Shown here piece after piece: positions 4,657-60,435 of a stretch of 64,000 nt of DNA (the first letter of the stretch is position 1; each line of letters opens with the position of its first letter). This DNA is from Candidatus Poribacteria bacterium. Its GTDB lineage: Bacteria > Poribacteria > WGA-4E > JAJDTR01. Location of the stretch: positions 3,392,001-3,456,000 of the forward strand of contig CBDCTK010000002.1 in the NCBI GenBank assembly GCA_965222225.1, written 5' to 3'. A program made the position numbers and the translations under genes. The notes beneath the pieces were generated by a model, which saw only the letters and a program-made list of their open reading frames with translations, ran no database searches and was not told where the DNA came from.

Positions 4657-4800
4657 ATCAGGCGACTGGACAAGGAGCGATCAAACGAGTGGACAGCGAG
4701 TGCGATAGAGATCCCCCTCAAACGAGTGGATAACGATCAACCGACTGAATAAGGAGGGCGATAGCAAATCCCATGCGATAGAAATCCCCTATAGATTCCT
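4657..4800 (+). repeat. GA-hairpin element cluster (4 units, nested)
   Basis: Units start at 4657, 4680, 4718 and 4736; follows the truncated REP GTAGGGTACGCACTGCG (4640). Confidence 0.9.
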
Positions 4801-4913
4801 CTCCCGATCGCGACTTCTTGAGCGTTTGTAGAATCAACAGGTCGCATGAGGCGACTTCACCAGCCAAGAAGCAGCCAACAAAAATCTAGTATGACTCGCT
4901 GTTTCCCGCACCT

Positions 4914-7505
4914 TCATATTCTCGCGCGTCGGAAATCTATACGACGCAGCGCAATGTCTGCGAGCAACAGCAGTAGAGCAATTATGAGGAATGGTCGCCA
5001 GAGATGAATCCGAAGAACGACCGGCTGATCGGGGGAACGAAATGTGTCTTCAGGTAGGACGTTGAATCTGCCGCCGGACACCGCCGCCAGTTGGGTTAGG
5101 CGGGCTTCGTCGGCGTTGTGAACGAGGTATTCTTCCGGATAGGAAACCACAGTGCCGGTTACTTGCGTATGCACGACCTCGCCGCTCCGCTTCTGCATGA
5201 TGTTGACGAAATACGGTCCGACATCATTCGTCGAGAAATCAAGTTCATACCGCCCCGGAGCAGTCTGCGCCACCCCAAGTTGCTTCTTCTTCAGGTCAGG
5301 CGCGATAAGGGAGATGTCGCTCTCCAACTCGTTCAGAAAATCTCCGGTCTCACCAAGGGCGTCAATCGCCAGGTGTGCGTTTCCCTTCTCCTGCTTGATT
5401 TCCGCTTGAAAATTGCTCAGCGTTGTTTTGCGCATCGTGTCGCGCACCAACTGTGCCCAAAACTTGCCGTAACCTGGCCACTCCAACCAATCGGAAGCCC
5501 AACGCGCTTTGGCGTCGGAGGTGAAGGCGACAGATTTGCCCAAGCCGTACTGCCAACTTGCCAATAGTGGATCGCCGCGATCGGAGACGGGGAAAATTTC
5601 AGCCGTTGGTCGTGGTTGTGTGGCGACGTAGCCGAGTAGAAATGGTGCAACTTGAAGATCGATCCCGCTCAAGACCTGCGTAGGCTTGATGAGTTGAGGA
5701 ATAAACGGTTCATCAATGATTGCCGACTTTGATGCGGTTATGGTCTCCTTTGCAAAAATCTGCGGAATATTGTAAGGATCCTGCGTAACGTAATCGCGTC
5801 CGCCTCCCCAGTTGGCGAGGTTGCCCAGCAGATTCATGTCGGCACCGCTGCCGATGCCGACTGTGGAAATCGTGATGCGCTCCGCACGCATTGAACTCGC
5901 GATGCCGTACCAATCCCCGGGTTGTGACATGCCGTCGCTCAGAACGATGACATTTTTTAGCTTGGCATTCGTCTCCGTCAGAGCGAGATACGCTTGTTCG
6001 AGTGCGGGGTAGAGGTTCGTACCGCCGTTCGCAGTGATTGAACCTATCTGATCGGAGAGGTACAGCTTGTCCGAAGCGGAATGCATCTCGGCAATCCAGA
6101 ACGGCGAGCCGTCAAAAGCGACAACACCGATTTTGTCGCGTCTGCCCAACAGTTCTACCGCCCCGCGCGCCGCCTCTTTTGCCAACTCAATCTTGATGCC
6201 GCCCATGCTTCCCGACTTGTCAATCACTAGCACCATTGCCAGAGAAGGCGTTTCCTTTTTCTTCTCCGTGTCGGTACGGACAGGCAAGATGGCTTCAATC
6301 GGCGTTTTGTAGTAGCCTCCAAGTCCAAAACTGTTTTCGCTGCCCAACATCATGAATCCGCCGCCGAGATCCTGCACGTATGTGCGGATAAGCTCCATCT
6401 GCTTCTTGGTCAGGCGATTGGCAGGCACATCCGCGAACACGACAAGATCGTAGTTATGCAGGTCGGCAAGTTCGTCCGGAACTCCCAAGCCATTGCGGAC
6501 ATTAACGCGAATGTCGGCATCCTCGAGCGCCTGAGTTAGATAGCGCGCTTGCGGTTCGTTCTCGTCAATTAACAACACCTTCGATTTACCCGATACTACG
6601 ACAATGCCGAGTGCCCGATTGTTGTCGTAACGGGTGTCCTGCGTTGAGCGGGCAAGGGCATCAAAGGTTAACGTTCCGCTCTCCGTTGATGTCTGTGTAA
6701 ACAGCACCCGATTTTCGCCCGCAACCAAGCGAACCTCTTGCGTTGCGGCCTCGAATTTGTTCTTGAAAAGACGAATCTCCGCGATGTCCTCATGGTTGCT
6801 GTGGACAAGCACCTCCAAACTGAACGGCTCGCCCTGCTTAACTTGCACCGGAGCGTCAATCCGCTCCAGCATAACTTCCGGCTCATCACTCGGATAGAGT
6901 GGCACTGTGTCTATCTGTACGCCAAAGTCCTGCCCGCGATGTCCCGTGTGAATCGCATCTCCCTGCGTCTCCACGCCGTCAGTAACGAGAACAATCCGCT
7001 TATTCGCATTCGCCGGAAAAACACCCCACGCCATCTCGACCGCCTGTGCGATGTTGGTGGCGTCGCCTGCCTCCTCATCAGCTTCCAACCAAGACTGCTT
7101 GATTTCAGCAAGGTCCAGCTCATCTTCGGATTCAACGCGAAAATCTTTGAGTATCTCTGCCCTGTCCGTGAATCCAATGACACCCGCCTGCTGCCCTGCG
7201 CCTTGTGATTCCAGAGCTTCGTTGATATAGTCCGTCGACGTTTCTAAACCGATCGCCGAAATACTATCCGATATATCCGCCAGAAAGATTACCGCCAGTT
7301 CGTCGTCGGTCTTCAGGTATTGAAGATAGGCAACGCTCAGGATAAGCAGCACGACAATGATTGCTCTCATAATCAAGCTGACAATCCGCTGTGTTCGCGT
7401 CAGGTCCACGAGACTGCGGCGGTCGCCGTAGTATAGAGCGGGCAGCAGAAGAACCAGGAAAAGTAGAAATGGACGCGCGATTTCCATCGGTCTAAACCCG
7501 ATCAA
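4914..7505 (-). CDS. VWA-domain membrane protein with glutamine amidotransferase-like domain
   Basis: Two MIDAS motifs (DISDS, DKSGS), VLVTDG and VLSDG, GGGFMMLG, WQYGLGKSVAFTSD; N- and C-terminal TM helices. Confidence 0.85.
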   Translation of the reverse strand: MIGFRPMEIARPFLLFLVLLLPALYYGDRRSLVDLTRTQRIVSLIMRAIIVVLLILSVAYLQYLKTDDELAVIFLADISDSISAIGLETSTDYINEALESQGAGQQAGVIGFTDRAEILKDFRVESEDELDLAEIKQSWLEADEEAGDATNIAQAVEMAWGVFPANANKRIVLVTDGVETQGDAIHTGHRGQDFGVQIDTVPLYPSDEPEVMLERIDAPVQVKQGEPFSLEVLVHSNHEDIAEIRLFKNKFEAATQEVRLVAGENRVLFTQTSTESGTLTFDALARSTQDTRYDNNRALGIVVVSGKSKVLLIDENEPQARYLTQALEDADIRVNVRNGLGVPDELADLHNYDLVVFADVPANRLTKKQMELIRTYVQDLGGGFMMLGSENSFGLGGYYKTPIEAILPVRTDTEKKKETPSLAMVLVIDKSGSMGGIKIELAKEAARGAVELLGRRDKIGVVAFDGSPFWIAEMHSASDKLYLSDQIGSITANGGTNLYPALEQAYLALTETNAKLKNVIVLSDGMSQPGDWYGIASSMRAERITISTVGIGSGADMNLLGNLANWGGGRDYVTQDPYNIPQIFAKETITASKSAIIDEPFIPQLIKPTQVLSGIDLQVAPFLLGYVATQPRPTAEIFPVSDRGDPLLASWQYGLGKSVAFTSDAKARWASDWLEWPGYGKFWAQLVRDTMRKTTLSNFQAEIKQEKGNAHLAIDALGETGDFLNELESDISLIAPDLKKKQLGVAQTAPGRYELDFSTNDVGPYFVNIMQKRSGEVVHTQVTGTVVSYPEEYLVHNADEARLTQLAAVSGGRFNVLPEDTFRSPDQPVVLRIHLWRPFLIIALLLLLADIALRRIDFRRARI

Positions 7506-7653
7506 TTACGAGATTGAGGATTAAATGGCACTCACGATCGGCTTGTCTTGAAATCATTCAAATCAAAGAGCATCCAGTGTTAGTTACATCATTTCCATAG
7601 TTGTTTAGTTCGGTCCATAGAACCAGTCGGTTAGGATTCACGTATTTCGGTTT

Positions 7654-7679
7654 GTAGTAGTGCAATTCATTGCACGTCC
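7654..7679 (+). repeat. GTAG REP hairpin GTAGTAGTGCAATTCATTGCAC
   Basis: Identical copy at 46684; variants at 25248 and near 40674; stem GTGCAAT/ATTGCAC. Confidence 0.8.
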
Positions 7680-7754
7680 GGCATGGACGTATGTGAACCT
7701 GCTTCATCCGCATTGGCATTGTACTTCCCTGCTTGACGCCCTCCCTAGCTTCTC

Positions 7755-7831
7755 GGTCTGGATTGGCAAATCCAGACCATCAACCGAATGAACAGATCAA
7801 GCGACTGAATAAGGAGCGCGATTGGGATCCA
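7755..7831 (+). repeat. Palindrome GGTCTGGATT-GGCA-AATCCAGACC followed by 2 GA-hairpin units
   Basis: Related palindromes near 26598 and 36717; units start at 7779 and 7796. Confidence 0.8.
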
Positions 7832-18488: not shown

Positions 18489-18606
18489 TCGTTATCGTTC
18501 CTTGATAATGCCAAGACCGAACACGTCAACAATGCTTATACCATTTCGCTTGAATTATGGCGCATATGATGTCTGAATTATATAGTTCACTTTCTCCGTA
18601 GGCGGC

Positions 18607-18670
18607 ATCAAGCGACTGAACAAGGAGCGCGATAGAAATCCCATAGCAAATCCCGTGCGATAGAGATTCT
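18607..18670 (+). repeat. GA-hairpin element plus two 3' fragments
   Basis: ATCAAGCGACTGAACAAGGAGCGCGATAGAAATCCC directly after GTAGGCGGC. Confidence 0.9.
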
Positions 18671-18760
18671 TTTGCCCCGTACTGGGTAAGATTTGATTAA
18701 CGCAACTAATCCACTGCAAATATAGAGAAATGGTATAAACACCGCCAATCAAGGCAATCC
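18671..18760 (+). repeat. Dispersed repeat of about 80 bp (3 copies: 18671, 19150, 58421)
   Basis: TTGCCC...TGG...GATT(A/G)ACGC...TAA...CACTG...AAAT(G/C)GTAT shared by all three copies. Confidence 0.75.
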
Positions 18761-18819: not shown

Positions 18820-19069
18820 TATAGTCATTGCAACTAAGAATTACACATGTGTTTATTAACATACCCAAATCCCCACCCATTCCCGTAGGTCGGGATCAAC
18901 CGAACGAATAGTGAGGGATCAAGGGAATGAAAAATGACCGCGATAGAGTTCCCATAGAGATCCCTTCCAGCCCGACCCGCTCAATGGGAAACGTCGCAAA
19001 CCGGGAGATTGTGAGCTAAGTCGAGTCAATCGACGCTCATATGTGTAAATATAAATGCAAACGACTATA
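18820..19069. mobile_element. Putative MITE with about 29-bp imperfect TIRs, related to 40553-40759
   Basis: Left TATAGTCATTGCAACTAAGAATTACACAT; right ATGTGTAAATATAAATGCAAACGACTATA; left end nearly identical at 40553. Confidence 0.65.
18895..18964 (+). repeat. Nested GA-hairpin elements inside the REP GTAG-GTCGGG...CCCGAC
   Basis: Units at 18895 and 18918; REP arms at 18889-18894 and 18971-18976. Confidence 0.9.
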
Positions 19070-19094: not shown

Positions 19095-19149
19095 ATCAAG
19101 CGAGTGAATAACAATCAACCGACCGGATAGGGAGTGCGATAGAGATCTT
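19095..19149 (+). repeat. GA-hairpin elements (2 units)
   Basis: Units at 19095 and 19114 after GTTCGTAGTAGAA. Confidence 0.85.
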
Positions 19150-19247
19150 CTTGCCCTGCTTGGGAAGGCTTGATTGACGCTATTAACGCACTGCGAATAC
19201 AGAGAAATGGTATTAACAATCAAAGCAAATTCTACGAAGGCTCAGGT

Positions 19248-25383: not shown

Positions 25384-26490
25384 ATGGAGATATTCATGCA
25401 AGACCAAATGAAAATCGGAATCATCGGCTGTGGCAATATTAGCAGGGCATACTTTAGTGGCGCCCAGAACACGGACGCCTTGGAAATCAAATCCTGCGCC
25501 GACATTCGCATGGAAGCCGCCCAAGCGGCGGGGGGCAAGTGGGGATGCCAAGCGGTCAGCGTGGACGACCTCTTAGCTGACGAAGAAATTGAACTCGTCA
25601 TAAACTTGACCGTTCCAAAGGCGCATGTAGAGGTGGCGATTGCGGTGTTGGAATCGGGCAAGCACGTTTACAGCGAAAAGCCGTTCGGTGTGAACATCGA
25701 AAGTGGTCGGCAACTCCTCGCTAAAGCGGCTGAAACCAAGTTGCGCGTCGGTAATGCCCCGGACACCTTCTTCGGGGCTGGCATTCAGACTTCGCGGAAG
25801 GTGGTTGACGAAGGTGGAGTCGGAAAGCCCATCGCGGGCACGGCATTCATGTGCAGCCACGGTCCCGAGAGCTGGCACCCCAACTCCGTGTTCTATTATG
25901 ACATCGGCGGCGGTCCAATGCTCGACATGGGCCCCTACTACGTGACTGCGCTGGTCAACCTCCTCGGCTCCGTCAAACGTGTCGCTGCCGTGACCACGAA
26001 GGCGTTTGAAGAAAGAGTGGCAACCAGCGAAACCGCTTATGGCTTGCGCATTCCCGTGAACACGACCACACACCTGACCGGGGCGCTTGAGTTTGTAAGC
26101 GGTGCCGTCATCACAATGATTATGAGTTTTGATATGTGGAGGCATTGCCTACCGTGCATTGAGCTCTACGGCGAGACCGGCTCCATACAAGTGCCCGACC
26201 CGAACGGATTTGCAGGCCCAGTGCTTCTCGCCGAGAATCATGACGATTGGTCCGAAGTCCCGCACGCATTTCCGGCAAATGCTCGTACGTTTGGCGTAAT
26301 CGACATGGTTCGTGCGATTCGCTCCGGACGGCCGCACCGCGCTAGCGGCGCTCTGGCTTACCATGTTCTGGAAGTCATGCTCGCATTTGACAAGTCGTCA
26401 GAGTCGGGAGTGCATGTCGAAATTCAGAGCACGGTCGAACGGCCCGCACCCCTACCGCTGGGACTTGACGAGTGGAAGGTGGAAGACTGA
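25384..26490 (+). CDS. Gfo/Idh/MocA oxidoreductase
   Basis: IGIIGCGNIS, GKHVYSEKP, GGGPMLDMGPYY. Confidence 0.9.
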   Translation: MEIFMQDQMKIGIIGCGNISRAYFSGAQNTDALEIKSCADIRMEAAQAAGGKWGCQAVSVDDLLADEEIELVINLTVPKAHVEVAIAVLESGKHVYSEKPFGVNIESGRQLLAKAAETKLRVGNAPDTFFGAGIQTSRKVVDEGGVGKPIAGTAFMCSHGPESWHPNSVFYYDIGGGPMLDMGPYYVTALVNLLGSVKRVAAVTTKAFEERVATSETAYGLRIPVNTTTHLTGALEFVSGAVITMIMSFDMWRHCLPCIELYGETGSIQVPDPNGFAGPVLLAENHDDWSEVPHAFPANARTFGVIDMVRAIRSGRPHRASGALAYHVLEVMLAFDKSSESGVHVEIQSTVERPAPLPLGLDEWKVED

Positions 26491-26696
26491 GAGATTTTCG
26501 GTGGGAGAGAATCGAAAAACGGGAACGATAACGCTCGTCCACGTAAGCAACTTTACCTTTTGACAGAGGCCACGGTGCACCAGGGCCATCCGCGCCTTCT
26601 GGATTGCCAAATCCAGCATATTTAGTATTTACGTAACTGAAAACCCAAAGGTTCACTGTAGGATAGCTTATTTTCTGTCTTGACGCTACGATCTGT

Positions 26697-26788
26697 GTAG
26701 GAGCGATCTCCTGGTCGCGACCGCCTATTCTTGGCAGGCCAAGATGCCCTGCCTACCGTCGTGACCTCCAGTTGCTGCGTAAGTTCTA
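26697..26788 (+). repeat. GTAG REP doublet (uninterrupted copy)
   Basis: Inverse homolog of 4101-4190; ends in TGCGTAAGTTCTA. Confidence 0.75.
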
Positions 26789-26815
26789 ATATCTTTATCT
26801 AATCTGTGGGTTGGG

Positions 26816-26887
26816 ATCAAGCGAGTGGACAACGATCAAGCGAACGGATAGTGAGCGCGATAGCAAATCCCGTGCGATAGAAATCCC
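26816..26887 (+). repeat. Nested GA-hairpin elements inside the REP GTGGGTTGGG...GAACCCAAC
   Basis: Units at 26816 and 26835; uninterrupted REP homolog at 56612-56647. Confidence 0.9.
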
Positions 26888-26947
26888 ATAGAACACAGTG
26901 GAACCCAACTCCAACTTGAATACGACAACTTCCTTAAAGGCAATACA

Positions 26948-27790
26948 ATGAATCAGGGTCTCAAAGCGCAATGGCAGGAAGAATTCGATGAGGCAGACGT
27001 ACAGACCGTTAGACAGATGCTCGCCCAAGAGCCACAATTGGTTAATGTGCGGGTTAGGCGCAGCAATCAAGCCGTACCGCAATGGGGACCATTATTCGTT
27101 GCCAGCGTCAAGCTCAATAGTCTTGACAAGGTCAAAGCCCTTGTCGAAGCGGGGGCGAACATAAACAACAGTGAGCTTGGCACGCACTGGCCCAGTACCG
27201 ATTACGAAATCAACCGGTACTTCATTGAATGTGGTATTGATGTAAACCAGCCGAGTTATCTGGGGTTCCACGCCATCGGCGTTACAGGATTAGATTCCAT
27301 TCTGCTGATGATGAAAAACGGTCTCGATCCCAACTTCACTTGGGGCTACATTGGACAGACGATGTTGCATCTGCAAGCGTTGCATGATGCCGACAAAGAG
27401 TTGGCGTGTACCTTTATGTTGATTCGGGCGGGGGCAAATGTCAACGCGCAAGCGCTGACCGGTTTGGATGACGAACCGATTATGGAGAACGAGCACGGTA
27501 TCCGGTACGGTCGAGAGACCCCGCTTCACTCCGCCGCCCGGTCCGGCAGTAAGCTACAAGTGCGACTTCTACTTGATCACGGGGCGGACGCCTCGCTTAA
27601 AACAGTCAGCCGAATAGTCGAGCCGAAAAAACTCACCGAGTGGACCGAGGGGGTTACATCCTTCCTCTGGCCCATGACCGAGTTCAAACGAGTGCTGTTT
27701 GAGCCGTATGCCGGCGAAACGCCGTTGGAGATGGCAATCCGTTACGGCCATCATGAGGTGGCGGCAATCCTTGACGAGAGAACAGGTTGA
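26948..27790 (+). CDS. Ankyrin repeat protein
   Basis: ETPLHSAARSG, LLDHGAD, GETPLEMAIRYGHHEVAAIL. Confidence 0.85.
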   Translation: MNQGLKAQWQEEFDEADVQTVRQMLAQEPQLVNVRVRRSNQAVPQWGPLFVASVKLNSLDKVKALVEAGANINNSELGTHWPSTDYEINRYFIECGIDVNQPSYLGFHAIGVTGLDSILLMMKNGLDPNFTWGYIGQTMLHLQALHDADKELACTFMLIRAGANVNAQALTGLDDEPIMENEHGIRYGRETPLHSAARSGSKLQVRLLLDHGADASLKTVSRIVEPKKLTEWTEGVTSFLWPMTEFKRVLFEPYAGETPLEMAIRYGHHEVAAILDERTG

Positions 27791-27884
27791 ATCTGGCTTG
27801 TGTCAGGTGCGATCTGCTATCGCCAAGTAGGACTCAGTCCGGTACTGTCTTCGACCGATGCTCAAGAAAAGAGGATTTCAATCA

Positions 27885-29483
27885 ATGCAGAAACCATTGT
27901 ATCTTGACACGGATGAACCACTTGACGGCGATCTGGATGTTGGTGGGCGTGGCAACGACGTATGGAGGATATGCGAAAGCGCGTACACGGGAGACGTTAA
28001 AACCGTACAAGAACTGATAAACCGCGACCCAAAATTGGTTTCTTATGAATACATAACCAGCCCGGTAGGCTTTGCCGTCGCCGCGGGAAACACGGAAGTT
28101 GCCAGAACCCTGTTGAGTCATGGCGCCAGTCCGTGCGCCTCTCTTCACGAGCATTCGCTTCTGAGAGTTGCCGAAATCCGGGGGTATTCTGAGATCCATC
28201 AACTCCTACTAAACACACTGAAATCCCGATTCGACTACTCGGAAAACCAGCGCTCCATGACCGAACTGTTTCAAGCAATCACGGCGTTGGATTCTAACCG
28301 AATCAGTGAGCTTCTCAAGGGGCAACCACAACTGGGAACGGAGGCAACTCTATCAGGTGATACCGCTCTGCACCATGTAGCGTCCCTCTCCACCGAGAAC
28401 GTGAAAGAAATCGTCGATCTACTGCTTAGGTATGGTGCACGACTCGATGCGCGCAATGGAGGCGAACAAACGCCCATTGACGTGGGGATGGATGGCGGGA
28501 AATCCAAGTTGGTTCGTTATTTTCTCGAAAAACATCCGGTCAACCACATCACAATTGCCGCCTTTGAAGGAGACTTAGACAGAGTAGAGGCCTCGCTGAA
28601 AGCGGATCCATCGCAAGCAAACGCGCTCAGCCCTGCGGGACAACGTCCGCTGTCTCTCGCTGCGAAAGGGGGTTATCTAACCGTTGCCAAATCCCTGCTT
28701 GAAGCCGGCGCTCAGATTGAGGCACCAGAACGAAAAGCGCGGCACGGGATGGCGCTGGCAGAAGCCGTCTCCGGCAACCACTATGAGATAGCGGAGTTGC
28801 TTCTTGAGCACGGAGCTAATCCAAACCATCAACCTCTGACGCTTCACGCCAATGACGACAAGATGGTTGCGCTGCTTTATCGCTATGGCGCCTACGTATC
28901 GTTCTGGGATCGATGTGGCGGAGACGATATTGAAATCGTGTCGTCAATGTTGAACATGAACCCTGCAATGGCACGGTGTGAAGCGCCAATTTTGCTTGGT
29001 CGTTCGCGAGGTGATAATCCGCTTACGACGGGCGGCAAAAACTTGGACATTATTCGACTGCTGCTCCGTTACGGCGCTCAACTACAACCCACAAGTAATT
29101 GGTGCAACAGCTATATGTGGAATGACTACGACAAAGCGCAGTTGCTGTTAGATTACGGAGCCAGCCCGGACATGCAAACAATGACGGGCGTACGTCCACT
29201 CCATTTTCTGGCGACGGAAGTGTGGGACGCCCAAAAACCGAGCACCGCCGAACTATTGCTCAAGCGTGGTGTAGAGGTCGATTCGGTTGAGGAACTTTCG
29301 GGGGCAACCCCACTCGGTTGGGCGTCAAGCTGCGGAGATACAGAGTTTATGGAACTCCTAATAGACCACGGCGCCGACGTGAATCCCCCGACACAACCGT
29401 GGTCAAACCCTTTAGCGTTAGCTGAGCAAAATAGCCAGAAAAACGCAATTATGCTACTAAAGCGTCATGGAGCAAGAGTCTGA
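27885..29483 (+). CDS. Ankyrin repeat protein
   Basis: GDTALHHVA, RPLSLAAKGG, LLEHGANPN, GATPLGWA; start may instead be 27858. Confidence 0.9.
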   Translation: MQKPLYLDTDEPLDGDLDVGGRGNDVWRICESAYTGDVKTVQELINRDPKLVSYEYITSPVGFAVAAGNTEVARTLLSHGASPCASLHEHSLLRVAEIRGYSEIHQLLLNTLKSRFDYSENQRSMTELFQAITALDSNRISELLKGQPQLGTEATLSGDTALHHVASLSTENVKEIVDLLLRYGARLDARNGGEQTPIDVGMDGGKSKLVRYFLEKHPVNHITIAAFEGDLDRVEASLKADPSQANALSPAGQRPLSLAAKGGYLTVAKSLLEAGAQIEAPERKARHGMALAEAVSGNHYEIAELLLEHGANPNHQPLTLHANDDKMVALLYRYGAYVSFWDRCGGDDIEIVSSMLNMNPAMARCEAPILLGRSRGDNPLTTGGKNLDIIRLLLRYGAQLQPTSNWCNSYMWNDYDKAQLLLDYGASPDMQTMTGVRPLHFLATEVWDAQKPSTAELLLKRGVEVDSVEELSGATPLGWASSCGDTEFMELLIDHGADVNPPTQPWSNPLALAEQNSQKNAIMLLKRHGARV

Positions 29484-29508
29484 TTCCGCATTGAGCAGGT
29501 TTATATTG

Positions 29509-31404: not shown

Positions 31405-31527
31405 AGGCGTCGAAGCTCCTCAAGTGTGAATTGGAAAGGGGGACATGTCTCTCACGATTCACGTGGGATGGTGTATGATTGGGCATCCTGAAATTCATCA
31501 GCGGCTGCCAGCTCCGTTAAACTCGTG

Positions 31528-31746: not shown

Positions 31747-31794
31747 TTTTGTAGCGCTATTCGTCTCAAAACCAAGGTTTTTGTCAGCGTTTTT

Positions 31795-33674: not shown

Positions 33675-33748
33675 CTTACACCTCCGTGAATTCAGTGCGT
33701 TCTTCTAAGTTCGACTTTGTACAAAGTACAATTCTGAATTGTCATCTT

Positions 33749-33780
33749 AATGAGCGCGAAAGAACTCCCATAGAGATCCC
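33749..33780 (+). repeat. 3' fragments of the GA-hairpin element
   Basis: AATGAGCGCGAAAGAACTCCC-ATAGAGATCCC. Confidence 0.6.
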
Positions 33781-33892
33781 TTCAAGCAAACATATAACCC
33801 CGCACGGAAAGAGCATTCGGACGGGCGTAATCCACTGCACCCGCTCCACTCCTATCCGCCACGCCTATCAAGGTTGTCCGCTTTAAAGTATA

Positions 33893-34654
33893 CTATTCCG
33901 AATCGTAGCACGCCTCCTTCAAGAATTGGAGCATCCGCAGCCGTCGTGGCGGGGCATCTTTGAACGTTTCAGGGGTGTAATAACCTCCGTCTTTGCGGTA
34001 GAGCCACTTTATGTACTCCGCCTCCTCAGGGGTCCTAGGCTTCTGTATATAGTTGATATAAACGCCGCGTCGTTTCGCGCCTTCGCCGAATGCGGAATGG
34101 TAAAGTTTCACATTGAAAACCAGGAGATCGCCGGGATCCGTCTCAATCGGATAGATGCCGGGAACATCCTTCCCGAGAGGCAGAATGTCTTCGCCATATT
34201 TCTCCATCCGTTCCCGGTAGGGAAGAAAGTGGCTGCCCGGCAGCACGCAGAGGCAGCCGGTTGTTGCCCTGACGGGTTCTAGATAGAAAATCACTTTCAG
34301 ATGACGATGTCCCTCCGGAGCGACATCGTCATGATGCCACCTCGTGTTGTTGGTGCGAAGGGCGCACTCTGAAACCGTAAACACATACTCTTCGCCGAGC
34401 AAGTCCTCAATGAGCTCGTTGAGTTTGTCGCCATCAAGCAGTGGGTGGTAAACCGCTGGATTCGACTCGAAGAACCGGAGGGTACCTATCGTCCTTCTCT
34501 CTTCATTTATCTCCAGCGTCTTGAGACCTTTGGCCCTTTTCAAGGTCTCATCGAATGCATCGGTGTACCGTTGTAGTTCGTCAGCAGGAAAAAAGTCCCT
34601 CAAACAGAGAAATCCCAACGTTTCAAAATGGTGTTTCTGAGCTTCTGTTAACAT
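33893..34654 (-). CDS. PhyH family dioxygenase (tandem copy B)
   Basis: Same length (253 aa) and motifs as copy A; identical C-terminus. Confidence 0.9.
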   Translation of the reverse strand: MLTEAQKHHFETLGFLCLRDFFPADELQRYTDAFDETLKRAKGLKTLEINEERRTIGTLRFFESNPAVYHPLLDGDKLNELIEDLLGEEYVFTVSECALRTNNTRWHHDDVAPEGHRHLKVIFYLEPVRATTGCLCVLPGSHFLPYRERMEKYGEDILPLGKDVPGIYPIETDPGDLLVFNVKLYHSAFGEGAKRRGVYINYIQKPRTPEEAEYIKWLYRKDGGYYTPETFKDAPPRRLRMLQFLKEACYDSE

Positions 34655-34787
34655 TTTTCACCTTCCGTGGGTTCGTTCAGTGATTTTTGACGTGGCCGTT
34701 TTGCATATTCTGCGACCATCATGGTCACTGTTTCTATTTCTCAATCTCGACCCATCAACAGACTGCCCATCGCCAGAATTCAGCCCG

Positions 34788-36632: not shown

Positions 36633-36777
36633 ACGCTTCTTGTCCTTTCAATCTCAACACTGTTTCAAGTTTCACGCTCCCAACTTCTCTGACTCGACGC
36701 GCACCCTCAATGCTCAGACTGGATTGGCAAATCCAGACTGCACACTCGAATCCACCCGTCCGAATCACTCGTCTTTC

Positions 36778-37638
36778 TTATCTCTGCCGGATAAACTTCT
36801 GCAGCCGACCATCTGCCTGCACCTCGCTCACATACATATCCCCATGCGAATCTACCCAGAGACCGTGTGGGCAAGCATAGAACAACCCGGGCACCTCATT
36901 TCCGCGCTCACTCCCCCACTGGGTAATCACCTCCCCATCAAGCGTCATTATCGTGAGGTGCTGATCCATCTCCGCAATGTAAACGATGTCGTCCTCATCA
37001 ATGTAAATGGTGTCCGGATGCTTTAACCCGCCCCACTCTTCAATGTACTCGCCGTCAAGCGTGAAGAACTGGATGCGGTTGTTGCTGCGGTCTGCCACCA
37101 TCACCCGGTTGCGCGGATCCACCCGAACACAATGCGGCAAATCAAACTCTCCGGGTCCCGTCCCCGGCCTACCCCACGACATTATCAACTCTCCGTCGGG
37201 CGAATACTTGTGTACACGCGCGTTTCCGTACCCATCACTGATGAACATCTCGCCATTCGGGCCTAGTGCAAGATCGGTCGGCAAATTGAACGGTTCTCCA
37301 TCCGCACCAGGCTGACCTTGGTTGCCGATGGACATCAGCAGTTCGCCGTCCGACGTGAATTTGTGCATAATATGTGCGTCCCGCTCAACACAATAGATGT
37401 TATCTTCGGCATCAATGAAAATGCCGTGTGCATCCACAAGGATGTCGTCTCCCCACGAAGCGAGAAAGTTACCTTCGCGATCGAAAACCACCATGGGGTG
37501 CTCACTTCGGCTGTAGACATAAACCCTGTCTTGCGAATCCACGCCAACGGCTGGAATCCAACCGAAATTCCATCCTTCGGGTAATTGCCACCAATCTTCC
37601 TGAACTTCGTAAGTATGACTACCTGCTCCGTATGTCAT
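36778..37638 (-). CDS. NHL-repeat protein (peptidyl-alpha-hydroxyglycine amidating lyase-like)
   Basis: FNLPTDLA, SDGYGNARVHKY, GEFDLPH, VADRSNNRIQ. Confidence 0.85.
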   Translation of the reverse strand: MTYGAGSHTYEVQEDWWQLPEGWNFGWIPAVGVDSQDRVYVYSRSEHPMVVFDREGNFLASWGDDILVDAHGIFIDAEDNIYCVERDAHIMHKFTSDGELLMSIGNQGQPGADGEPFNLPTDLALGPNGEMFISDGYGNARVHKYSPDGELIMSWGRPGTGPGEFDLPHCVRVDPRNRVMVADRSNNRIQFFTLDGEYIEEWGGLKHPDTIYIDEDDIVYIAEMDQHLTIMTLDGEVITQWGSERGNEVPGLFYACPHGLWVDSHGDMYVSEVQADGRLQKFIRQR

Positions 37639-37729
37639 GCGACTTTTCCTCCGAGAGTCTAAATATTGTGCACATAAATCATTCCATATCCTGCATTCAT
37701 TATCTCATAGTTATTGCCGAATTGCAACA

Positions 37730-37834
37730 ATCAACCAATCAAACGAGATCAACCGAACGGACAGTGAGGGCGATAGACATCCTGATAGCGACTGCGATAG
37801 TAAATCCCGTGCGATAGTATTCCTATAGAAATCT
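37730..37834 (+). repeat. Multiply nested GA-hairpin element cluster
   Basis: Two 5' stubs (37730, 37738), a full unit at 37748, then three 3' fragments. Confidence 0.85.
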
Positions 37835-38038
37835 TCTCCAACCTGTAGGAGGGAGCTCCGGCTCGCGACAAACCCAAGTTTATTCTCGAAATCTCGGTTT
37901 TACCTCCATCGCCTTCTTCGCCTTGCAGCACCGTATTTCGCCGCGCCGCCCGCGCTCTCACGATTCACGCACTACGTTTCATGTGCGTCCCGTCCTTCCA
38001 ATCTTCCCTCCTTCCATCCTTCCCCGTTCGTAGTAGTG

Positions 38039-38074
38039 ATCAAGGAAGCGAATAGCGACCGCGATAGAAATCCT
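38039..38074 (+). repeat. Single GA-hairpin element truncating the REP GTAGTAGTG
   Basis: ATCAAGGAAGCGAATAGCGACCGCGATAGAAATCCT. Confidence 0.85.
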
Positions 38075-38106
38075 TTCTCCGCACATCTGGTCTATCGGCT
38101 TTTTGC

Positions 38107-38136
38107 TTGACTGCGTTCTGCGATTGGATTTATAAT
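38107..38136 (+). promoter_or_regulatory. Sigma70-type promoter
   Basis: TTGACT-18 nt-TATAAT upstream of a run of + strand genes. Confidence 0.6.
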
Positions 38137-38273
38137 CCCATCCTTGATAAGCGCACAATTAAGAACACGCGGAAACGGAACGCACGAAATCAAAGAGAAA
38201 CAAACGTGACACAATCGAAGGAGTTTATGCGACTGCTTCACAACAATCTTTGCCAAGAGGGATTCATAAGATT

Positions 38274-39317
38274 ATGAGTATGCAGGCGGCGTTTATGCAC
38301 GGCGCGCGCGACATGCGCGTTGAACGAACAGAAATTCCCCATGCTACGGAAACAACCGCCGTCATAAAAGTTATGAGCAGCGGCGTCTGCGGCTCCGATC
38401 TGCACTGGTACGCAGTCCGACCCTACCCGGAGCCCACCGTGCTGGGACACGAAGTTAGCGGCGAGATCGTGGAAGTTGGAACCGAGCTTGGAGGGTTCCG
38501 CGAAGGCGATCGCGTCTGCGTGGACCTCACCCGACACTACGCGTGTGGGGATTGCCCATCCTGCCGTGGGGGCACATACTTTCACTGTCCGAACAAGGCT
38601 CGCGTGCCGTGGGGCGGTGGTTTCGCGGAATACATGGAAGTCAAGGGCTTGGGAATCCACCCCCTGCCGGATTCGCTTACCCACGAACAGGGAGCAATGG
38701 TCGAACCGGTCGCTGTCGGAGTTCACGCCTGCCGCTACGGCAATGTCAAATCCGGCGAGAGTGTGTTGGTGCTCGGTGCGGGAACAATTGGCTTGCTATC
38801 TCTTGCTGTGGCAAAGGTGTTTGGCGCCAAACGTGCCTACATTGTAGCCAAGTACGATGTGCAGGTGCGTATGGCGGAGGCGATGGGCGCAGATGGCATT
38901 ATCCGCTTGGGAACCGGCCACTTGGCTCAGCAGGTGCAAGAAATTTCGGATGGAGAACCCATTGACACCGTTATTGAAACTGTCGGCGGATCTGCTCCAA
39001 CCATCGATCAAGCAGTAAGCGCCGTCAGACCCGAAGGCAAGGTTGTTGTTACCGGCGTCTTTCCCAAACCCGTCCCGATCAACTTGGAACAGGCACTGGA
39101 AAAGGAGGCGAAAATCATCTTCTCCGTATGTTACAGCGCGGAAAACGGAACACACGACTATGAAGCCGCTTCCGATCTCATCGCCTCCGGAAAAGTGAAC
39201 GCGACGCAACTCATCACGCATCGCTTCCCGCTGAACCAAACGCCCGAGGCATTTGAAACTGCCCTTGACAAAACGACCGGCTCGGTCAAAGCCATGATAA
39301 ACGTGTCCGCGCCATAA
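38274..39317 (+). CDS. Zn-dependent alcohol/polyol dehydrogenase (MDR family)
   Basis: GVCGSDLH, LGHEVSG, CGDCPSC..C, GAGTIG. Confidence 0.9.
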   Translation: MSMQAAFMHGARDMRVERTEIPHATETTAVIKVMSSGVCGSDLHWYAVRPYPEPTVLGHEVSGEIVEVGTELGGFREGDRVCVDLTRHYACGDCPSCRGGTYFHCPNKARVPWGGGFAEYMEVKGLGIHPLPDSLTHEQGAMVEPVAVGVHACRYGNVKSGESVLVLGAGTIGLLSLAVAKVFGAKRAYIVAKYDVQVRMAEAMGADGIIRLGTGHLAQQVQEISDGEPIDTVIETVGGSAPTIDQAVSAVRPEGKVVVTGVFPKPVPINLEQALEKEAKIIFSVCYSAENGTHDYEAASDLIASGKVNATQLITHRFPLNQTPEAFETALDKTTGSVKAMINVSAP

Positions 39318-39493
39318 AATTGTCCACAACTTGCACGCATCTTGACTTCCGAGGATAAAAGCGTATGCGTCTCGTTTACTCTTGAGTCCGGTACTCACCA
39401 CAAAACTGTTTAAACAACGACGGGAACAACACCGATACATTTCCAGTGCCACTGTGAAAGTCCTTTTCCTTCTTAAAAAGAGAGGTCATCTAC

Positions 39494-40540
39494 ATGGACA
39501 AACATGCTCACACTCGAAATAACCCGAACCCCCATTTGACCATCCCTGCCTCGGAAACTGCCGAGCGGATGGCTAATTCTTGTGCGAATTTTCTGGAAGC
39601 CTTGACACCCGCTCTGCGACAAAAGGCGGAATTTCCGTTTGCCGACACCGAGCGGTTACGTTGGCACTTCGTCCCGGTAGAGTTGTGGGAACGAAAAGGC
39701 ATACCGCTTAAGGAGATGAATGATGCGCAGCGGAAGGCAGCCTTCAAACTACTGGCGTGCGGGCTAAGCAATCAGGGATATCGCAAAGCGAAAGCAATCA
39801 TCAACTTGGAGCCGACACTCGGTGAAATTGAGCGTGCCGAGGGCGATACCCGATTTCCGCGTGACCCGGAGCAATACTTCTTTTCGGTATTTGGCGATCC
39901 GACCAATAACGAGCCTTGGGGCTGGCGGGCGGAAGGACACCACGTCTCGCTCCACTTCACGGTGATAAATCGGGAATTCATCTCTCCAAATCCCTGCTTT
40001 TTCGGTTCCAATCCCGCAGAAGTTCGGCACGGTGCTAACAAAGGGCTACGTATTCTCTCGGCGGAGGAAGATCTTGCGCGGCAACTGCTTGGCAGCTTGA
40101 AGACCGATCAGAGAGGCAAAGCGGTTATCAACCCAACCGCGCCCCCTGACATTCTGACGCGTGAACAACTGAAAGTTGAAGTTGGGGCGGTGCAAGGGCT
40201 GGCTGCCGAGTCGATGGAGACCCCGCAACGAGAACTACTCGTAAAACTAATTCACGAGTATGTGGAAAGACTGCCGCAGGAGATAGCCGACATAGAAATT
40301 CGGAAACTTCGAGATGCCAACCTGAACGACATCCATTTTGCGTGGGCAGGCGCGGAAGAGCGCGGCAAACCGCACTACTACCGCCTTCACGGACCATTCT
40401 TCTTCGCCGAATACGACAACACGCAGAATAACGCCAACCACATTCATACCGTGTGGCGACACATGGAGGACGATTTCGGTTTCGATTTGCTCCGATTGCA
40501 CTATCAACACGCGGAACCCACGAAACACCATCAACATTGA
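39494..40540 (+). CDS. DUF3500 family protein
   Basis: WGWRAEGHHVSLHFT, PCFFGSNP, EYDNTQNNANHIHTVWR. Confidence 0.85.
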   Translation: MDKHAHTRNNPNPHLTIPASETAERMANSCANFLEALTPALRQKAEFPFADTERLRWHFVPVELWERKGIPLKEMNDAQRKAAFKLLACGLSNQGYRKAKAIINLEPTLGEIERAEGDTRFPRDPEQYFFSVFGDPTNNEPWGWRAEGHHVSLHFTVINREFISPNPCFFGSNPAEVRHGANKGLRILSAEEDLARQLLGSLKTDQRGKAVINPTAPPDILTREQLKVEVGAVQGLAAESMETPQRELLVKLIHEYVERLPQEIADIEIRKLRDANLNDIHFAWAGAEERGKPHYYRLHGPFFFAEYDNTQNNANHIHTVWRHMEDDFGFDLLRLHYQHAEPTKHHQH

Positions 40541-40552
40541 CGAATCGGAGTT

Positions 40553-40759
40553 TATAGTCATTGCAACTAAGAATTATACATTTAGGATTTATGCAGTGCG
40601 GTTTGTAGGAGCGATCAAAGGAATGAATAATGACTGCGATAGAGATCCCTCTCCGAATCGCGACCATGGGTTTATAGCAGCGCAGTTCATTGCGCGTCGC
40701 TTGGTGCTTCACTTACCTATAGATCGCAATATGTGTAAATGTGAAGGTAGATGATTATA
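40553..40759. mobile_element. Putative MITE carrying REPs and a GA-hairpin element
   Basis: Left TATAGTCATTGCAACTAAGAATTATACAT; right ATGTGTAAATGTGAAGGTAGATGATTATA. Confidence 0.6.
40614..40649 (+). repeat. Single GA-hairpin element inside the REP GTAGGAGCG|TCTCCGAATCGCGACC
   Basis: Removing 40614-40649 restores a REP like those at 26697 and 4190. Confidence 0.9.
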
Positions 40760-40842
40760 AGAATGCTGGACATATCCACGACGACGTCGGAAATCGGAAG
40801 TAGCATTTTCCTCCAATCCACAGAAATCCTAACAAAGACTAT

Positions 40843-42018
40843 ATGAACACTGTACGCGTTGGCATCGTCGGGTTGGGGCTTGTTGCTGCCTCACACTTGA
40901 AAGGCTACGGGTGCCATCCACATGCCCAAGTCGTTGCCATCTGCGATCTTGAGGCGGCAAGAGCAGATCGTTTTGCGTCGGAACACGGAATTGAGGATGT
41001 CTATACGTCGTATGAGGAGATGTTGGCAAAAGCCCAAATCAACACGGTTGATATCGCCACCCCGACCTTTCTACACCCATCAATGACCCGCCAAGCCGCC
41101 GAAGCCGGAATGCATGTCCACTGCGAGAAACCCTTCTGCCGGAGTGTGGGCGAAGGCCTTGAAGCCTGCGAGGCTGTACACCGTAGCGGGGTCAAGCTAG
41201 TTGTCGGTGAGACGTATGTCTTTATCGCCTCCCACATGAAGGCTCGTGAACTAATTGATGCCGGAGAGATTGGACGCCCCCTCCAACTACGCCAACGGCA
41301 CGGTGCTTGGTTCGAGCGTGAAAGAGAAGTGGTTGGAGAAATCCCCGAAGCCCGAAACTGGCGCGTCAATGGCGAAAAATCGGGCGGTGGTGACTATCCG
41401 TGGATCTTCGACCATGCCGTGCATTTCTTCGCCACAGCCGAATACCTCATGGGAGATACCCGGATTGCCGAAATCTCTGCCGTCACCGGTACCTGTCGAA
41501 CGGATTCGAACGGAGGCGGTGCTGCCCACGATCCTTATTCGATCCCCGATGTCGATATTCCCATCATCACGTGGAAGTATGAGGATACTGATTGCCAGGG
41601 GCTTTGGATGCGAGCTGAACGGCTGAACGGCAAATACGACTACATGCACGGCTTCAGCACGACGGTCATCGGTGAGCGCGGTATGATTGAGGTGCTGGGG
41701 GAGGGCGGTCACAATCTGTTGTGGAACGGCGAGCAGCAGCATCTGCTTTTGCATCGCGAAGGCAAAGAAACCCGCTCCTTCCGCTTTGACGAGGGAGGCG
41801 ATGATGTTTGGCAATCTGATATCAGCTACTACAGCCGCGGACATATTAACCAAGTCCACCATCTTATCGACTGTGTCCACCATGATACTTCACCCCGTTA
41901 TTCCGGGGAGGATGGTGTACATGCCGTACGCTGCACCTTAGCCGCAATACGCTCCGCTCGCGAAAGCCGCCCCATCGCCGTAGAGGACATCGCTCCAAGC
42001 TACACCGCCTACTCCTAG
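40843..42018 (+). CDS. Gfo/Idh/MocA oxidoreductase
   Basis: VGIVGLG, HVHCEKP, FDHAVH. Confidence 0.9.
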   Translation: MNTVRVGIVGLGLVAASHLKGYGCHPHAQVVAICDLEAARADRFASEHGIEDVYTSYEEMLAKAQINTVDIATPTFLHPSMTRQAAEAGMHVHCEKPFCRSVGEGLEACEAVHRSGVKLVVGETYVFIASHMKARELIDAGEIGRPLQLRQRHGAWFEREREVVGEIPEARNWRVNGEKSGGGDYPWIFDHAVHFFATAEYLMGDTRIAEISAVTGTCRTDSNGGGAAHDPYSIPDVDIPIITWKYEDTDCQGLWMRAERLNGKYDYMHGFSTTVIGERGMIEVLGEGGHNLLWNGEQQHLLLHREGKETRSFRFDEGGDDVWQSDISYYSRGHINQVHHLIDCVHHDTSPRYSGEDGVHAVRCTLAAIRSARESRPIAVEDIAPSYTAYS

Positions 42019-47933: not shown

Positions 47934-48004
47934 ATCAAGCGACCGAATAGGATCAAACGAGTGAATAACGAGTGCGATAGTGATTCCCGCGCGATAGAAA
48001 CCCC
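47934..48004 (+). repeat. Nested GA-hairpin elements inside the palindrome GAAACCG...CGGTTTC
   Basis: Units at 47934 and 47952; palindrome arms at 47927 and 48022-48028. Confidence 0.9.
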
Positions 48005-56461: not shown

Positions 56462-56647
56462 GTAGGGTGCGCACTACGCACCAGCCTTTGTAAGTGTAAG
56501 CGGCAATCGAGCGAAAGAATAATGAGCGATCAACTGAGTGGTTAACGAACGCGATAGGAGATCTTGGTAGAGTTCCAACAGAGATCGCAAGGCGATGAAA
56601 TCCCATAGCTTCTAGGTTGGGTTGAACGTAGTGAAACCCAACTCCAA
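56462..56647 (+). repeat. REP, degenerate nested GA-hairpin cluster (56506-56608), and a second REP
   Basis: GTAGGGTGCGCACTACGCACC; units at 56506 and 56529; TAGGTTGGGTTGAACGTAGTGAAACCCAAC. Confidence 0.85.
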
Positions 56648-58281: not shown

Positions 58282-58348
58282 CGCATACATCAACCATTAT
58301 GTTCACCGGTAATACCATTTCGCTGCACACCAAACTCGGTTGACGGGG

Positions 58349-58420
58349 ATCAAGGGAGTGAATAACGACCGATCAACTAACTGGACAAGGAAGGCGATAG
58401 TAAATCCCGATAGAGATCCC
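58349..58420 (+). repeat. Nested GA-hairpin elements
   Basis: Units at 58349 and 58372, 3' remainder at 58409-58420; flanks CGGGG / CCCCG. Confidence 0.9.
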
Positions 58421-58539
58421 CTTGCCCCGCGTTGGAAAGACTCGATTGACGCTATTAATGCACTGTAAATATGGGGAAATCGTATAAATTTCCGTAACAC
58501 AATAGCACGGCAAATCCGCCTCATGAAGGAGAATGACTT

Positions 58540-59085: not shown

Positions 59086-59457
59086 ATGACCGGAACACAG
59101 CAACAAATCACCGAATCATTGATAACCGATCTTCAGAACGGAACCCTCACCGAAGCCCGATTGCGCCAGAAAATCGCTGCTATCGCGACGGAAACGGAAA
59201 AAAAACGCCAGGACATTCTTTATCTACAGGTTGGAACAACATCCCCCGCATCGCAAGTGGTCGGCATGACGTACATAGAGGCCGGTGTCCTCAAAGAAGC
59301 ATCTTCCGACCCAAACGAATGGCAATATCAGACAGTGCTCAACGCCGTTCAGAGCGGTTGGCGGATCATCTCTTTTCCCAACATGGCGCTATTAGCCATG
59401 TCCGACGAAGAATCCTACGGCCTCGGTTTTGAGTTTATTTTGGAACGCTGGAGGTAA
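59086..59457 (+). CDS. Hypothetical protein adjacent to PhyH
   Basis: AAGGA RBS, ORF ending 3 nt before PhyH; YQTVLNAVQSGWRIISFP. Confidence 0.65.
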   Translation: MTGTQQQITESLITDLQNGTLTEARLRQKIAAIATETEKKRQDILYLQVGTTSPASQVVGMTYIEAGVLKEASSDPNEWQYQTVLNAVQSGWRIISFPNMALLAMSDEESYGLGFEFILERWR

Positions 59458-59460
59458 ATC

Positions 59461-60306
59461 ATGAAACCATCCGAGATGAAAACCTACGATTGTGAACCAA
59501 CCCTGACCGATTCGCAGGTGGTGGAATTTTGCACGAACGGCTATCTGATGCTTGAGGGTGTGGTATCCGACGAAACCAACCGCCGGTCGATGGACTACTG
59601 CGACGAGTATTCCAATCACGAGCCGAGCGGTATTCTACAACAAGGCTGGTTCGTGGAGGATGTCATCATCAATCCGGTCGCAGCCGGTGCCGTGCGGTCG
59701 CTGTTAGGGACGAACTTTCACTTGCCTATACTGATGAGTAACCACCGCGTTCCCTGTCCGCAGGGCCCCACGCACTGGCACGTAGACGGAAACTACAAGC
59801 ATCAATATGAGTTGAATTTCCTCCAAGTTTTCTACTATCCTCAAGATACGCCAATTGAAATGGGACCGACGCAGGTTCTGCCGGGATCTCACCTGATACG
59901 AAATAAGGCGCGATTCATGTGTCATCTAAGCGGGATTCGTGGAGCAATCTCGACCGCCGCCCCAGCAGGCTCTATTTTTCTCACGGTGTATCACATTTGG
60001 CACCGCCGCGGTCCCTCGACGGCGACGGCCATGCGAAACTTGCTCAAATACTTCTACTGGCGCACAACACCGCCCAAACGCGACTGGGTAATTGAACCGG
60101 ATTTCGACTTTGCGACTGCCCGTTACGGTGGCCCCGGGCAAAACTATTCCGAACAGTTTCGCGATACGGTAAAGGTTGCCGAGACGTTCTTGTGGCTCTG
60201 CGGCAAGCATGAGTCCTTTCGGAATTTGGGCGGACAGAGTTGGCCGCTTCCCGCGAATCGGATTGATCTCCCTTATGGCTTTCCCGAAGGTCTCCCGCAG
60301 CCCTAA
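59461..60306 (+). CDS. PhyH family dioxygenase
   Basis: FCTNGYL, WHVD, GPTQVLPGSH, IWHR. Confidence 0.9.
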   Translation: MKPSEMKTYDCEPTLTDSQVVEFCTNGYLMLEGVVSDETNRRSMDYCDEYSNHEPSGILQQGWFVEDVIINPVAAGAVRSLLGTNFHLPILMSNHRVPCPQGPTHWHVDGNYKHQYELNFLQVFYYPQDTPIEMGPTQVLPGSHLIRNKARFMCHLSGIRGAISTAAPAGSIFLTVYHIWHRRGPSTATAMRNLLKYFYWRTTPPKRDWVIEPDFDFATARYGGPGQNYSEQFRDTVKVAETFLWLCGKHESFRNLGGQSWPLPANRIDLPYGFPEGLPQP

Positions 60307-60365
60307 ACCGCAAAGAGTCGCTGCTCATATCCACTAGCGTTTGCGCAATGTGGCTCGTATTAGCG

Positions 60366-60435
60366 ATCAACTGAGTGGATAACGAAGGAGCAACTGACCG
60401 ATAGGGAAGGCGGTAGAGATCTCATAGAAATTCCC
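60366..60435 (+). repeat. Nested GA-hairpin elements inside a TAGCG...TGCTA hairpin
   Basis: Units at 60366 and 60389, remainder ATAGAAATTCCC. Confidence 0.85.

Follow-up and report, generated by a model that had tools for sequence, protein, structure and literature searches.

A covarying, strand-specific GA hairpin dispersed in Poribacteria genomes as a probable REP-like mobile element

The closest described counterparts of the element reported here are the repetitive extragenic palindromic (REP) sequences of Escherichia coli and the REP-associated tyrosine transposases (RAYTs) that accompany them. Passages of PMC8266576 describe TnpA-REP as recognizing single-stranded REPs in a strand-specific manner, and the AA–GC mismatch of the E. 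coli REP as conserved, its repair abolishing activity and its presence being needed for cleavage; the upper half of the REP hairpin, in that account, serves as non-specific structure whose sequence is not read. REPs flanking rayT of E. coli have the form GTAG...GAT-AA-GGCG...CGCC-GC-ATC. A 64,000-nucleotide (nt) stretch of a Candidatus Poribacteria bacterium (the window; positions 3,392,001–3,456,000 of contig CBDCTK010000002.1, assembly GCA_965222225.1) contains a dispersed hairpin repeat, hereafter the GA element, of the form ATC-AA-hairpin-GC-GAT, whose internal loop, AA on the 5′ arm and GC on the 3′ arm, matches in sequence and polarity that of REP/RAYT group 2 (E. coli K-12).

A first-pass annotation of the window had held this element to be unlike ordinary REP copies. 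That view is not supported: E. coli REPs, as those passages describe them, share both the AA/GC mismatch and an upper stem not read by sequence, and the GA element adjoins or lies inside resident REPs on their GTAG strand, shows the same replication-strand bias and is mobile. Because the loop and its polarity are those of E. coli REPs, REP and IS200/IS605 logic (fixed mismatches, free stems) is followed here, not departed from. The two are also alike in size (about 35 nt), extragenic position, copy number in the hundreds, strand-specific imperfect hairpin, fixed mismatch and free upper stem. Both form mosaic clusters with other repeats, and Y1 genes are present in the genome, some of them flanked by inverted copies. 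We read the GA element as a mobile element of the REP type, unusual in its build, and not as a category of its own. Unlike REPs, it has no GTAG of its own, and its stem consists of just two 2-base-pair (bp) helices around a fixed tandem GA/GA step, closed by a G-RAY-A loop; its arrays are mostly direct tandems, not inverted doublets, and carry a repeated 3′ tail (CGATAG-N-ATCCC). It also has a habit of occupying the loops of other REPs, and none of the RAYT families tested shares its distribution.

The genome to which the window belongs (G000; 5.70 Mb, two contigs) holds 870 units in the exact frame, and 1334 units in 884 clusters when up to one mismatch is allowed. Most clusters consist of a single unit (576), with 214 double, 62 triple and a maximum of 10 units, and approximately 90% of unit midpoints lie outside crude open reading frames (131 inside). 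The ATC-AA...GC-GAT frame is invariant, and the GA/GA step forms a symmetric 2 × 2 loop, with no bulge, between two covarying helices. In the 870 units, the inner stem is fully Watson–Crick (WC) paired in 664 and paired by WC plus G·T in a further 140; the corresponding values for the outer stem are 590 and 188. Mutual information between partner columns is 0.42–1.16 bits, and every other pair of variable columns gives at most 0.25 bits. The units comprise 361 distinct sequences, with inner and outer stem types in many combinations; this diversity and wide mixing mean that a few founder lineages do not explain the covariation.

The same structure was recovered from an alignment (A1) of 150 different 42-mer sequences, drawn from the window and from loci in 12 or more Poribacteria metagenome-assembled genomes (MAGs) and chosen with a search pattern fixed at the unpaired bases only. 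In this alignment 98.2% of cells are paired, compared with 79.9% in shuffles (0 of 500 shuffles reach 98.2%), and 232 cells are changed on both sides, compared with 41.6 in shuffles; when the partner is moved by 1–3 columns, 15–49% of cells are paired. A pattern specifying the flanks only (ATCAA N17 GCGATAG) shows that 812 of 836 matches have exactly 17 nt between the flanks, and in these 812 the internal G, A, G, A, G and A positions are 94–99% conserved and the paired positions are free. G·T pairs (for example, 184 and 123 at two positions) greatly outnumber A·C pairs (9–14), and the fold is therefore possible on the GA strand only. The first reading of the window as a strand-specific hairpin kept by structure, with paired bases free and unpaired bases fixed, is thus borne out by the covariation, the G·T excess and the flank-only scan, and the objection raised beforehand, that covariation might reflect founder lineages, falls away, as the signal persists in a set of 150 distinct copies drawn from numerous Poribacteria MAGs.

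Clusters end at their 3′ side in one or more tail modules, CGATAG-N(1–4)-ATCC. Mean tail numbers are 0.90, 1.17, 1.42 and 1.12 for clusters of 1, 2, 3 and 4 units; a nested mode of insertion in which tail number equals unit number is not supported, the correlation being weak (rho 0.17). An outer helix pairing the bases before ATCAA with the ATCCC tail was rejected, with no covariation (0.365 and 0.626 observed, 0.367 and 0.628 shuffled). A stem enclosing whole clusters shows a modest excess (161 versus 107 six-mers, inverted doublets included) and is a feature of a subset of clusters. The kink-turn of RNA was also considered and set aside, as the 3-nt bulge 5′ of the tandem G·A pairs is absent.

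In the window, ATCAANNGANNGNNNANNGANNGCGATAG with up to two mismatches gives 14 matches, all on the + strand, and none in 100 shuffles. A 23-nt unit scan of the loci noted at first finds 23 units, four of them truncated to 17–19 nt. To these come a truncated unit (47934), a degenerate unit (60389) and a fragment with only a tail (33749). These numbers agree with the approximately 25 units at 15 loci initially reported, and the hand counts of stem complementarity made then come close to the recount, in which the inner stem is WC in both pairs in 20 of 23 units (G·T in 1) and the outer stem is WC in 16 of 19 full-length units (G·T in 1). Covariance model R1 marks 15 strong terminal units, again all on the + strand. 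The genes of the window change strand near 25 kb; all GA elements are nonetheless on +. The loci, all on the + strand, are as follows.

4476–4499, +: empty target, a resident REP hairpin CGTAG-GGGCGAGG-TC-CCCTCGCCC; the orthologue in the congener G005 has a 35-nt GA element in its loop.
4657–4799, +: cluster of units 4657–4679 and 4680–4702, tail CGATAGAGATCCCC, truncated unit 4717–4735, unit 4736–4758 and three tail modules; the REP 5′ part GTAGGGTACGCACTGCG stands before it, and about 170 nt of the cluster are missing in G005.
7779–7830, +: cluster of truncated unit 7779–7795, unit 7796–7818 and degenerate tail CGATTGGGATCC; the G005 counterpart has one extra unit and longer tails.
18607–18669, +: cluster of unit 18607–18629 and three tail modules, within a composite at 18538–18736 that resembles a miniature inverted-repeat transposable element (MITE).
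18895–18964, +: cluster of tandem units 18895–18917 and 18918–18940 with two tails; REP arms GTAGGTCGGG ... CCCGACC lie on both sides, and the stretch is missing in G005.
19095–19149, +: cluster of truncated unit 19095–19113, unit 19114–19136 and one tail.
26816–26891, +: cluster of truncated unit 26816–26834, unit 26835–26857 and two tails, preceded by GTGGGTTGGG; in G005 the first unit is orthologous, and the second unit and all 3′ sequence are replaced.
31839–31874, +: single unit (ATCGA variant) with tail, directly 3′ of hairpin AAGCCCCAGCGGGG.
33749–33782, +: tail-only remnant GCGAAAGAACTCCCATAGAGATCCC; the hairpin units are still present in the G005 copy.
37730–37835, +: cluster of partial heads 37730–37747, unit 37748–37770 and five tail modules.
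38039–38073, +: single unit with tail, preceded by GTAGTAGTG.
40614–40649, +: single unit with tail, within a REP of the GTAGGAGCG...TCGCGAC type.
47934–48004, +: cluster of truncated unit 47934–47951, unit 47952–47974 and two tails.
56506–56612, +: cluster of tandem units 56506–56528 and 56529–56551 with several degenerate tails.
58349–58421, +: cluster of tandem units 58349–58371 and 58372–58394 with two tails, within a MITE-like composite.
60366–60435, +: cluster of unit 60366–60388, degenerate unit 60389–60410 and two tails.

The MITE-like composite is approximately 200 nt long, is bounded by ATACCATTTC...GAAATGGTAT and has GA units in its central part (window 18538–18736, 19095–19213 and about 58310–58475). 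Its copies are variably present between G000 and G005, and a 9-nt direct repeat flanks one larger insertion.

The surroundings of the element are frequently those of REPs. G000 contains several classical REP families, each composed of GT[AG]GG and a palindrome (for example, at window 4476–4499 and 31790–31815); GTAGGGTGCGCA.TGCGCACC is present in 68 copies and GTAGGGTGGGCA..GCCCACC in 78. Each classical family flanks its own RAYT-like Y1 gene in inverted orientation, and the several RAYT-like Y1 paralogues with flanking REPs of their own therefore amount to multiple REPtrons in one genome. GTAG occurs within 12 nt upstream, on the same strand, of 256 of the 884 GA clusters (about 29%), compared with 29 in a random control and 24 for CTAC; the motif is missing from this 12-nt interval in the other 628 clusters. 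Five or more REP families have clusters that begin exactly where the 5′ arm ends, and for about half of these the 3′ arm resumes at a fixed offset after the tail, as in the arrangement GTAGGCGGGG-element-CTTGCCCCGC that stands beside the canonical GTAGGCGGGGCATCTTGCCCCGC. GTAG is not part of the GA element: its upstream distance is variable, it belongs to the resident REP, and the polymorphic module of 30–36 nt is without it. Of 177 pairs of neighbouring clusters separated by less than 500 nt, 114 are in inverted orientation, and 19 of these have a 13-nt gap. The inverted doublet (REPIN) is a minority form: 576 of the 884 clusters contain one unit, and all others are direct tandems. Together, GA clusters and REPs resemble the mosaic BIMEs (bacterial interspersed mosaic elements) of E. 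coli.

Comparison with G005, which is 84–98% identical to G000 in aligned blocks, reveals that the element is polymorphic. Of 87 syntenic gaps, 50 are without the element, 11 have it in both genomes, 12 in G000 only and 14 in G005 only, so that 11 of 37 occupied gaps are common to both; individual loci are not strongly conserved. Within aligned blocks that span 1.28 Mb of G005 there are 235 insertions or deletions (indels) of at least 20 nt, 22 of them containing a GA unit, and at least six are clean differences of a single module, 30–36 nt long, with conserved flanks and no target duplication. Three of the clean differences fall at a REP hairpin apex (window 4476–4499 is one such empty site) and the rest outside REPs; their left flanks have nothing in common but a G, which also precedes 87% of clusters. 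The minimal polymorphic module is a single hairpin that appears to lack terminal inverted repeats. At shared loci the stems of orthologous units are retained; the units differ at single positions, and some of these changes disrupt pairs. Stem diversity is thus a property of the family, not a sign of rapid change at each locus. The sequence 3′ of a unit may be replaced entirely, and loss of units takes place between short direct repeats. G005 also has a 2.2-kb insertion relative to window 23022/23023, and synteny between the two genomes stops near window 29487.

The orientation of the element does not follow gene direction. Between tandem genes, 277 clusters have the orientation of the genes on either side and 251 the opposite one; 156 lie between divergent and 106 between convergent genes, near background proportions. 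The GA strand is the locally C-rich strand in 568 of 884 clusters. Over 85 bins of 50 kb, skew and the fraction of elements on + give a Spearman rho of −0.50, or −0.63 when masked intergenic skew is used; for gene strand, rho is 0.42 with skew and 0.13 with element strand. The canonical GTAG-REP families of G000 share the skew bias (49/68, 60/78, 11/14 and 21/33), which points to a replication-linked asymmetry at the DNA level that is common to REPs. On the question of DNA or RNA, the evidence leans towards DNA. The 5.6-Mb contig C2 of G000 itself has many changes of GC-skew sign along its length and no two-arm pattern, which suggests numerous rearrangements or assembly joins. GATC is depleted in G000 (0.57 of Markov expectation; GGCC, 0.34), and GA clusters contain 1599 of its 4326 intergenic GATC sites; GATC is formed at the head of the element by the G that precedes ATCAA in 87% of clusters, and is often present in the tail too.

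The distribution of the element is patchy within the phylum. In a scan with one genome per species, all 102 stretches among the matches listed are from Candidatus Poribacteria MAGs. Across 40 scanned relatives, the pattern with up to one mismatch is found in 9 of 9 congeners (genus g1; 650–1400 matches per genome) and in 4 of 4 genomes of g4, a genus of another family (about 220 matches each); one further relative has 4 matches and the remaining 26 of 40 have none. The covariance model detects the element in 17 of 151 genomes sampled across the phylum: g1 8/8 (G000 counted apart), g2 1/1, g4 4/4, g6 2/20 and g12 1/1, and in 0 of 100 genomes of family f2. One g6 genome (G133, 130 contigs) has at least 22 model matches, compared with none in 18 of the 20 g6 genomes searched, which could reflect horizontal transfer or a binning artefact.

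No match to Rfam 15 was obtained in the window at the gathering score, a search that covers the Poribacteria-1 motif only if Rfam holds it. At E ≤ 10, no Rfam match in window 4500–41000 overlaps a GA element, and none reaches the gathering score in 144 kb of Poribacteria loci, each with at least one exact pattern match. The comparison with Rfam proposed in the first-pass annotation therefore leaves the GA element without a family in release 15. Literature searches on repeats, structured RNAs, RAYTs and mobile elements of Poribacteria found no description of a GA-hairpin repeat; Poribacteria are not mentioned in the main text of PMC5737381, and PMC3909097 does not treat intergenic repeats.

Five Y1_Tnp loci are present in G000: an intact IS200-like gene of 157 amino acids (aa; 65.8 bits to NF033573), an intact gene of 257 aa and three broken RAYT-like genes. 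A search with the RAYT-E family finds one broken remnant in G000. Inverted GA elements flank loci L001, L005 and L048 and the RAYT-E genes of G015, G009 and G000; for RAYT-E, this arrangement is seen at 3 of 10 loci from element-holding genomes. The IS200-like Y1 gene (L001 1240–2110; G000:C2, about 3.080 Mb) and its orthologues L011–L023 are themselves flanked by inverted GCCCC-NNN-GGGGC hairpins followed by GACAGGTG, an arrangement that spans four genera, and in G000, G001 and G005 a GA element lies inside one of these flanking hairpins. Around the broken RAYT-E gene at G000:C2 1.545–1.553 Mb, GA clusters and other repeats are very dense; this region falls in the 200-kb bin richest in + units (53 on +, 13 on −).

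Several other systems provide partial parallels. The ends of IS200/IS605 elements and their miniatures are likewise strand-specific irregular hairpins with 4–5 fixed nt directly 5′ of the hairpin foot and with replication-linked orientation, and an intact IS200-like Y1 gene is present in G000. They insert without target duplication or inverted terminal repeats, as the GA element may also do, given that no duplication is seen at six clean sites. Unlike them, the GA element has one hairpin in place of distinct left and right ends, and no fixed target tetranucleotide beyond the preceding G. The ISDra2 target, TTGAT, is the complement of ATCAA, which we treat as a lead only. IS1397-type insertion sequences also insert in the apical part of REP hairpins; they are full elements with a transposase gene, whereas the GA element is a 35-nt module without one. 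The pneumococcal BOX element has a similar modular architecture (head, repeated middle unit in variable number, tail), with unrelated sequence and fold and longer units. Integron attC sites may be compared by analogy, being folded single-stranded DNA sites with variable stems whose structure is kept together with a small number of unpaired bases; the GA element differs from them in length, in conserved motifs and in having no cassette arrays. A passage of PMC8266576 draws the parallel between REPs and attC sites.

From the observations as a whole we infer, as a somewhat probable account when its full mechanism including a Y1-type enzyme is taken together, that the GA element is a non-autonomous mobile hairpin of 34–36 nt that acts as single-stranded DNA (ssDNA). 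The module comprises ATCAA, the hairpin, GCGATAG and then (A)RATCC(C), and would be active when folded as ssDNA: two 2-bp helices of free sequence split by the fixed tandem GA/GA step, capped by the fixed G-RAY-A loop and based on a fixed ATC/GAT mini-stem with the AA/GC internal loop. An enzyme would read the shape and the fixed unpaired bases, not the letters of the stem. The module would be excised and reinserted behind a G, leaving the target unduplicated, preferentially at the junction of 5′ arm and loop in resident GTAG-REP hairpins and beside its own copies, and repeated landing would build the tandem arrays and BIME-like mosaics. The enzyme would most likely be a Y1/HUH single-strand transposase (a RAYT or an IS200-like TnpA) acting in trans. 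A bolder version of the proposal, which we regard as no more than tentative, is that this is a self-standing ssDNA mobile element, among the smallest known, living as a hyperparasite in REP loops, with its tandem sheared G·A pairs read by an undescribed enzyme specificity (a new RAYT or IS200 type, or a non-Y1 enzyme).

A number of observations weigh against mobility of this kind. No cognate enzyme was found among four Y1 families (the IS200-like L001, L005 and L003 types and RAYT-E), none of the tested families matches the phyletic pattern of the element, and each has GTAG- or GCCCC-type REP flanks of its own; orthologues of the GA-flanked Y1 genes are flanked elsewhere by other REPs. Nor was an autonomous, gene-bearing version found among 91 genes flanked on both sides, which belong to large ordinary paralogue families and include no recurrent candidate. 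The strand bias is moderate (64%) and opposite to that of IS608 and ISDra2, and presence/absence differences cannot separate insertion from precise loss. Nearest-neighbour fold energy is no better than that of shuffles (z about 0 with RNA and DNA parameters), and with DNA parameters the proposed fold has minimum energy in 0 of 4 GA-strand copies; with RNA parameters, 3 of 4 GA-strand copies and 0 of 4 complements have their energy minimum in this fold, the ATC/GAT stem included. By these models the fold is intrinsically marginal, which would fit stabilization by non-canonical pairs or by a protein. Four RNA-library runs over window 26001–41000 consist of assembled contigs without strand, ends or level, and therefore do not bear on transcription in either direction; almost all bins are covered, and the peaks at element loci are due to multi-copy mapping.

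Three other explanations accommodate part of these data. The GA element might be a mere passenger in the loops of resident REPs, without mobility of its own and copied only when a RAYT moves the enclosing REP. The clusters that directly follow a GTAG 5′ arm (about 29%) and the 3′ arms that resume after the tail in about half of cases, over five REP families, would suit such carriage, as would an upper half of the REP that, in the passages of PMC8266576, is not read by sequence. We nevertheless find it unlikely: the module is shared by at least five unrelated REP families and is also present outside REPs, 628 of 884 clusters lack GTAG in the 12 nt upstream, and the clean polymorphisms consist of the 30–36-nt module alone, with the REP or flank present in both genomes. 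Those same clean differences at unrelated sites tell against a DNA site recruited by the host, for example for a protein of the nucleoid, of replication or linked to methylation, which selection would maintain and recombination, not transposition, would spread. A duplex binding site would not be expected to show intrastrand covariation with G·T tolerance. The loci are also poorly conserved between congeners, and orthologous copies decay. The bias that tracks the replication strand, the concentration of the otherwise depleted GATC at the head and often the tail of the element (1599 of 4326 intergenic sites; 0.57 of expectation), and the unit-level indels between short direct repeats would suit a recruited site, which we judge quite unlikely overall.

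A structured RNA module, in which a protein-binding tandem-GA hairpin would function in transcripts or as a small RNA and the DNA copies would be its genes or cis-elements, appears to us quite unlikely as well. Tandem sheared G·A is a common motif in RNA, wobble pairs of the G·U type are tolerated on one strand only, and it is RNA parameters that place the proposed fold at the minimum in 3 of 4 GA-strand copies and in no complement. Against this, the orientation is independent of flanking genes (277 versus 251) and tied to GC skew, the element inserts inside REP hairpins on their GTAG strand, its positions are little conserved between congeners (11 of 37 occupied gaps), Rfam has no match to it, and its fold energy gives it no advantage over shuffles.

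A non-autonomous hairpin mobile as ssDNA would extend the REP paradigm to Poribacteria, an uncultured phylum of sponge symbionts. With approximately 1000 copies per genome and hundreds of stem sequences, the family constitutes a natural mutational scan of what its enzyme needs, and that enzyme would require the tandem G·A step, the G-NNN-A loop and the AA/GC loop, not the letters of the stem. The GA module would in this respect be a minimal substrate for studies of single-strand DNA transposition. That clean insertions of 30–36 nt leave no duplication and often lie in other REP hairpins points to bacterial repeats parasitizing one another in nested fashion, and GA elements drive the turnover of intergenic sequence between close symbiont genomes and can break their assemblies.

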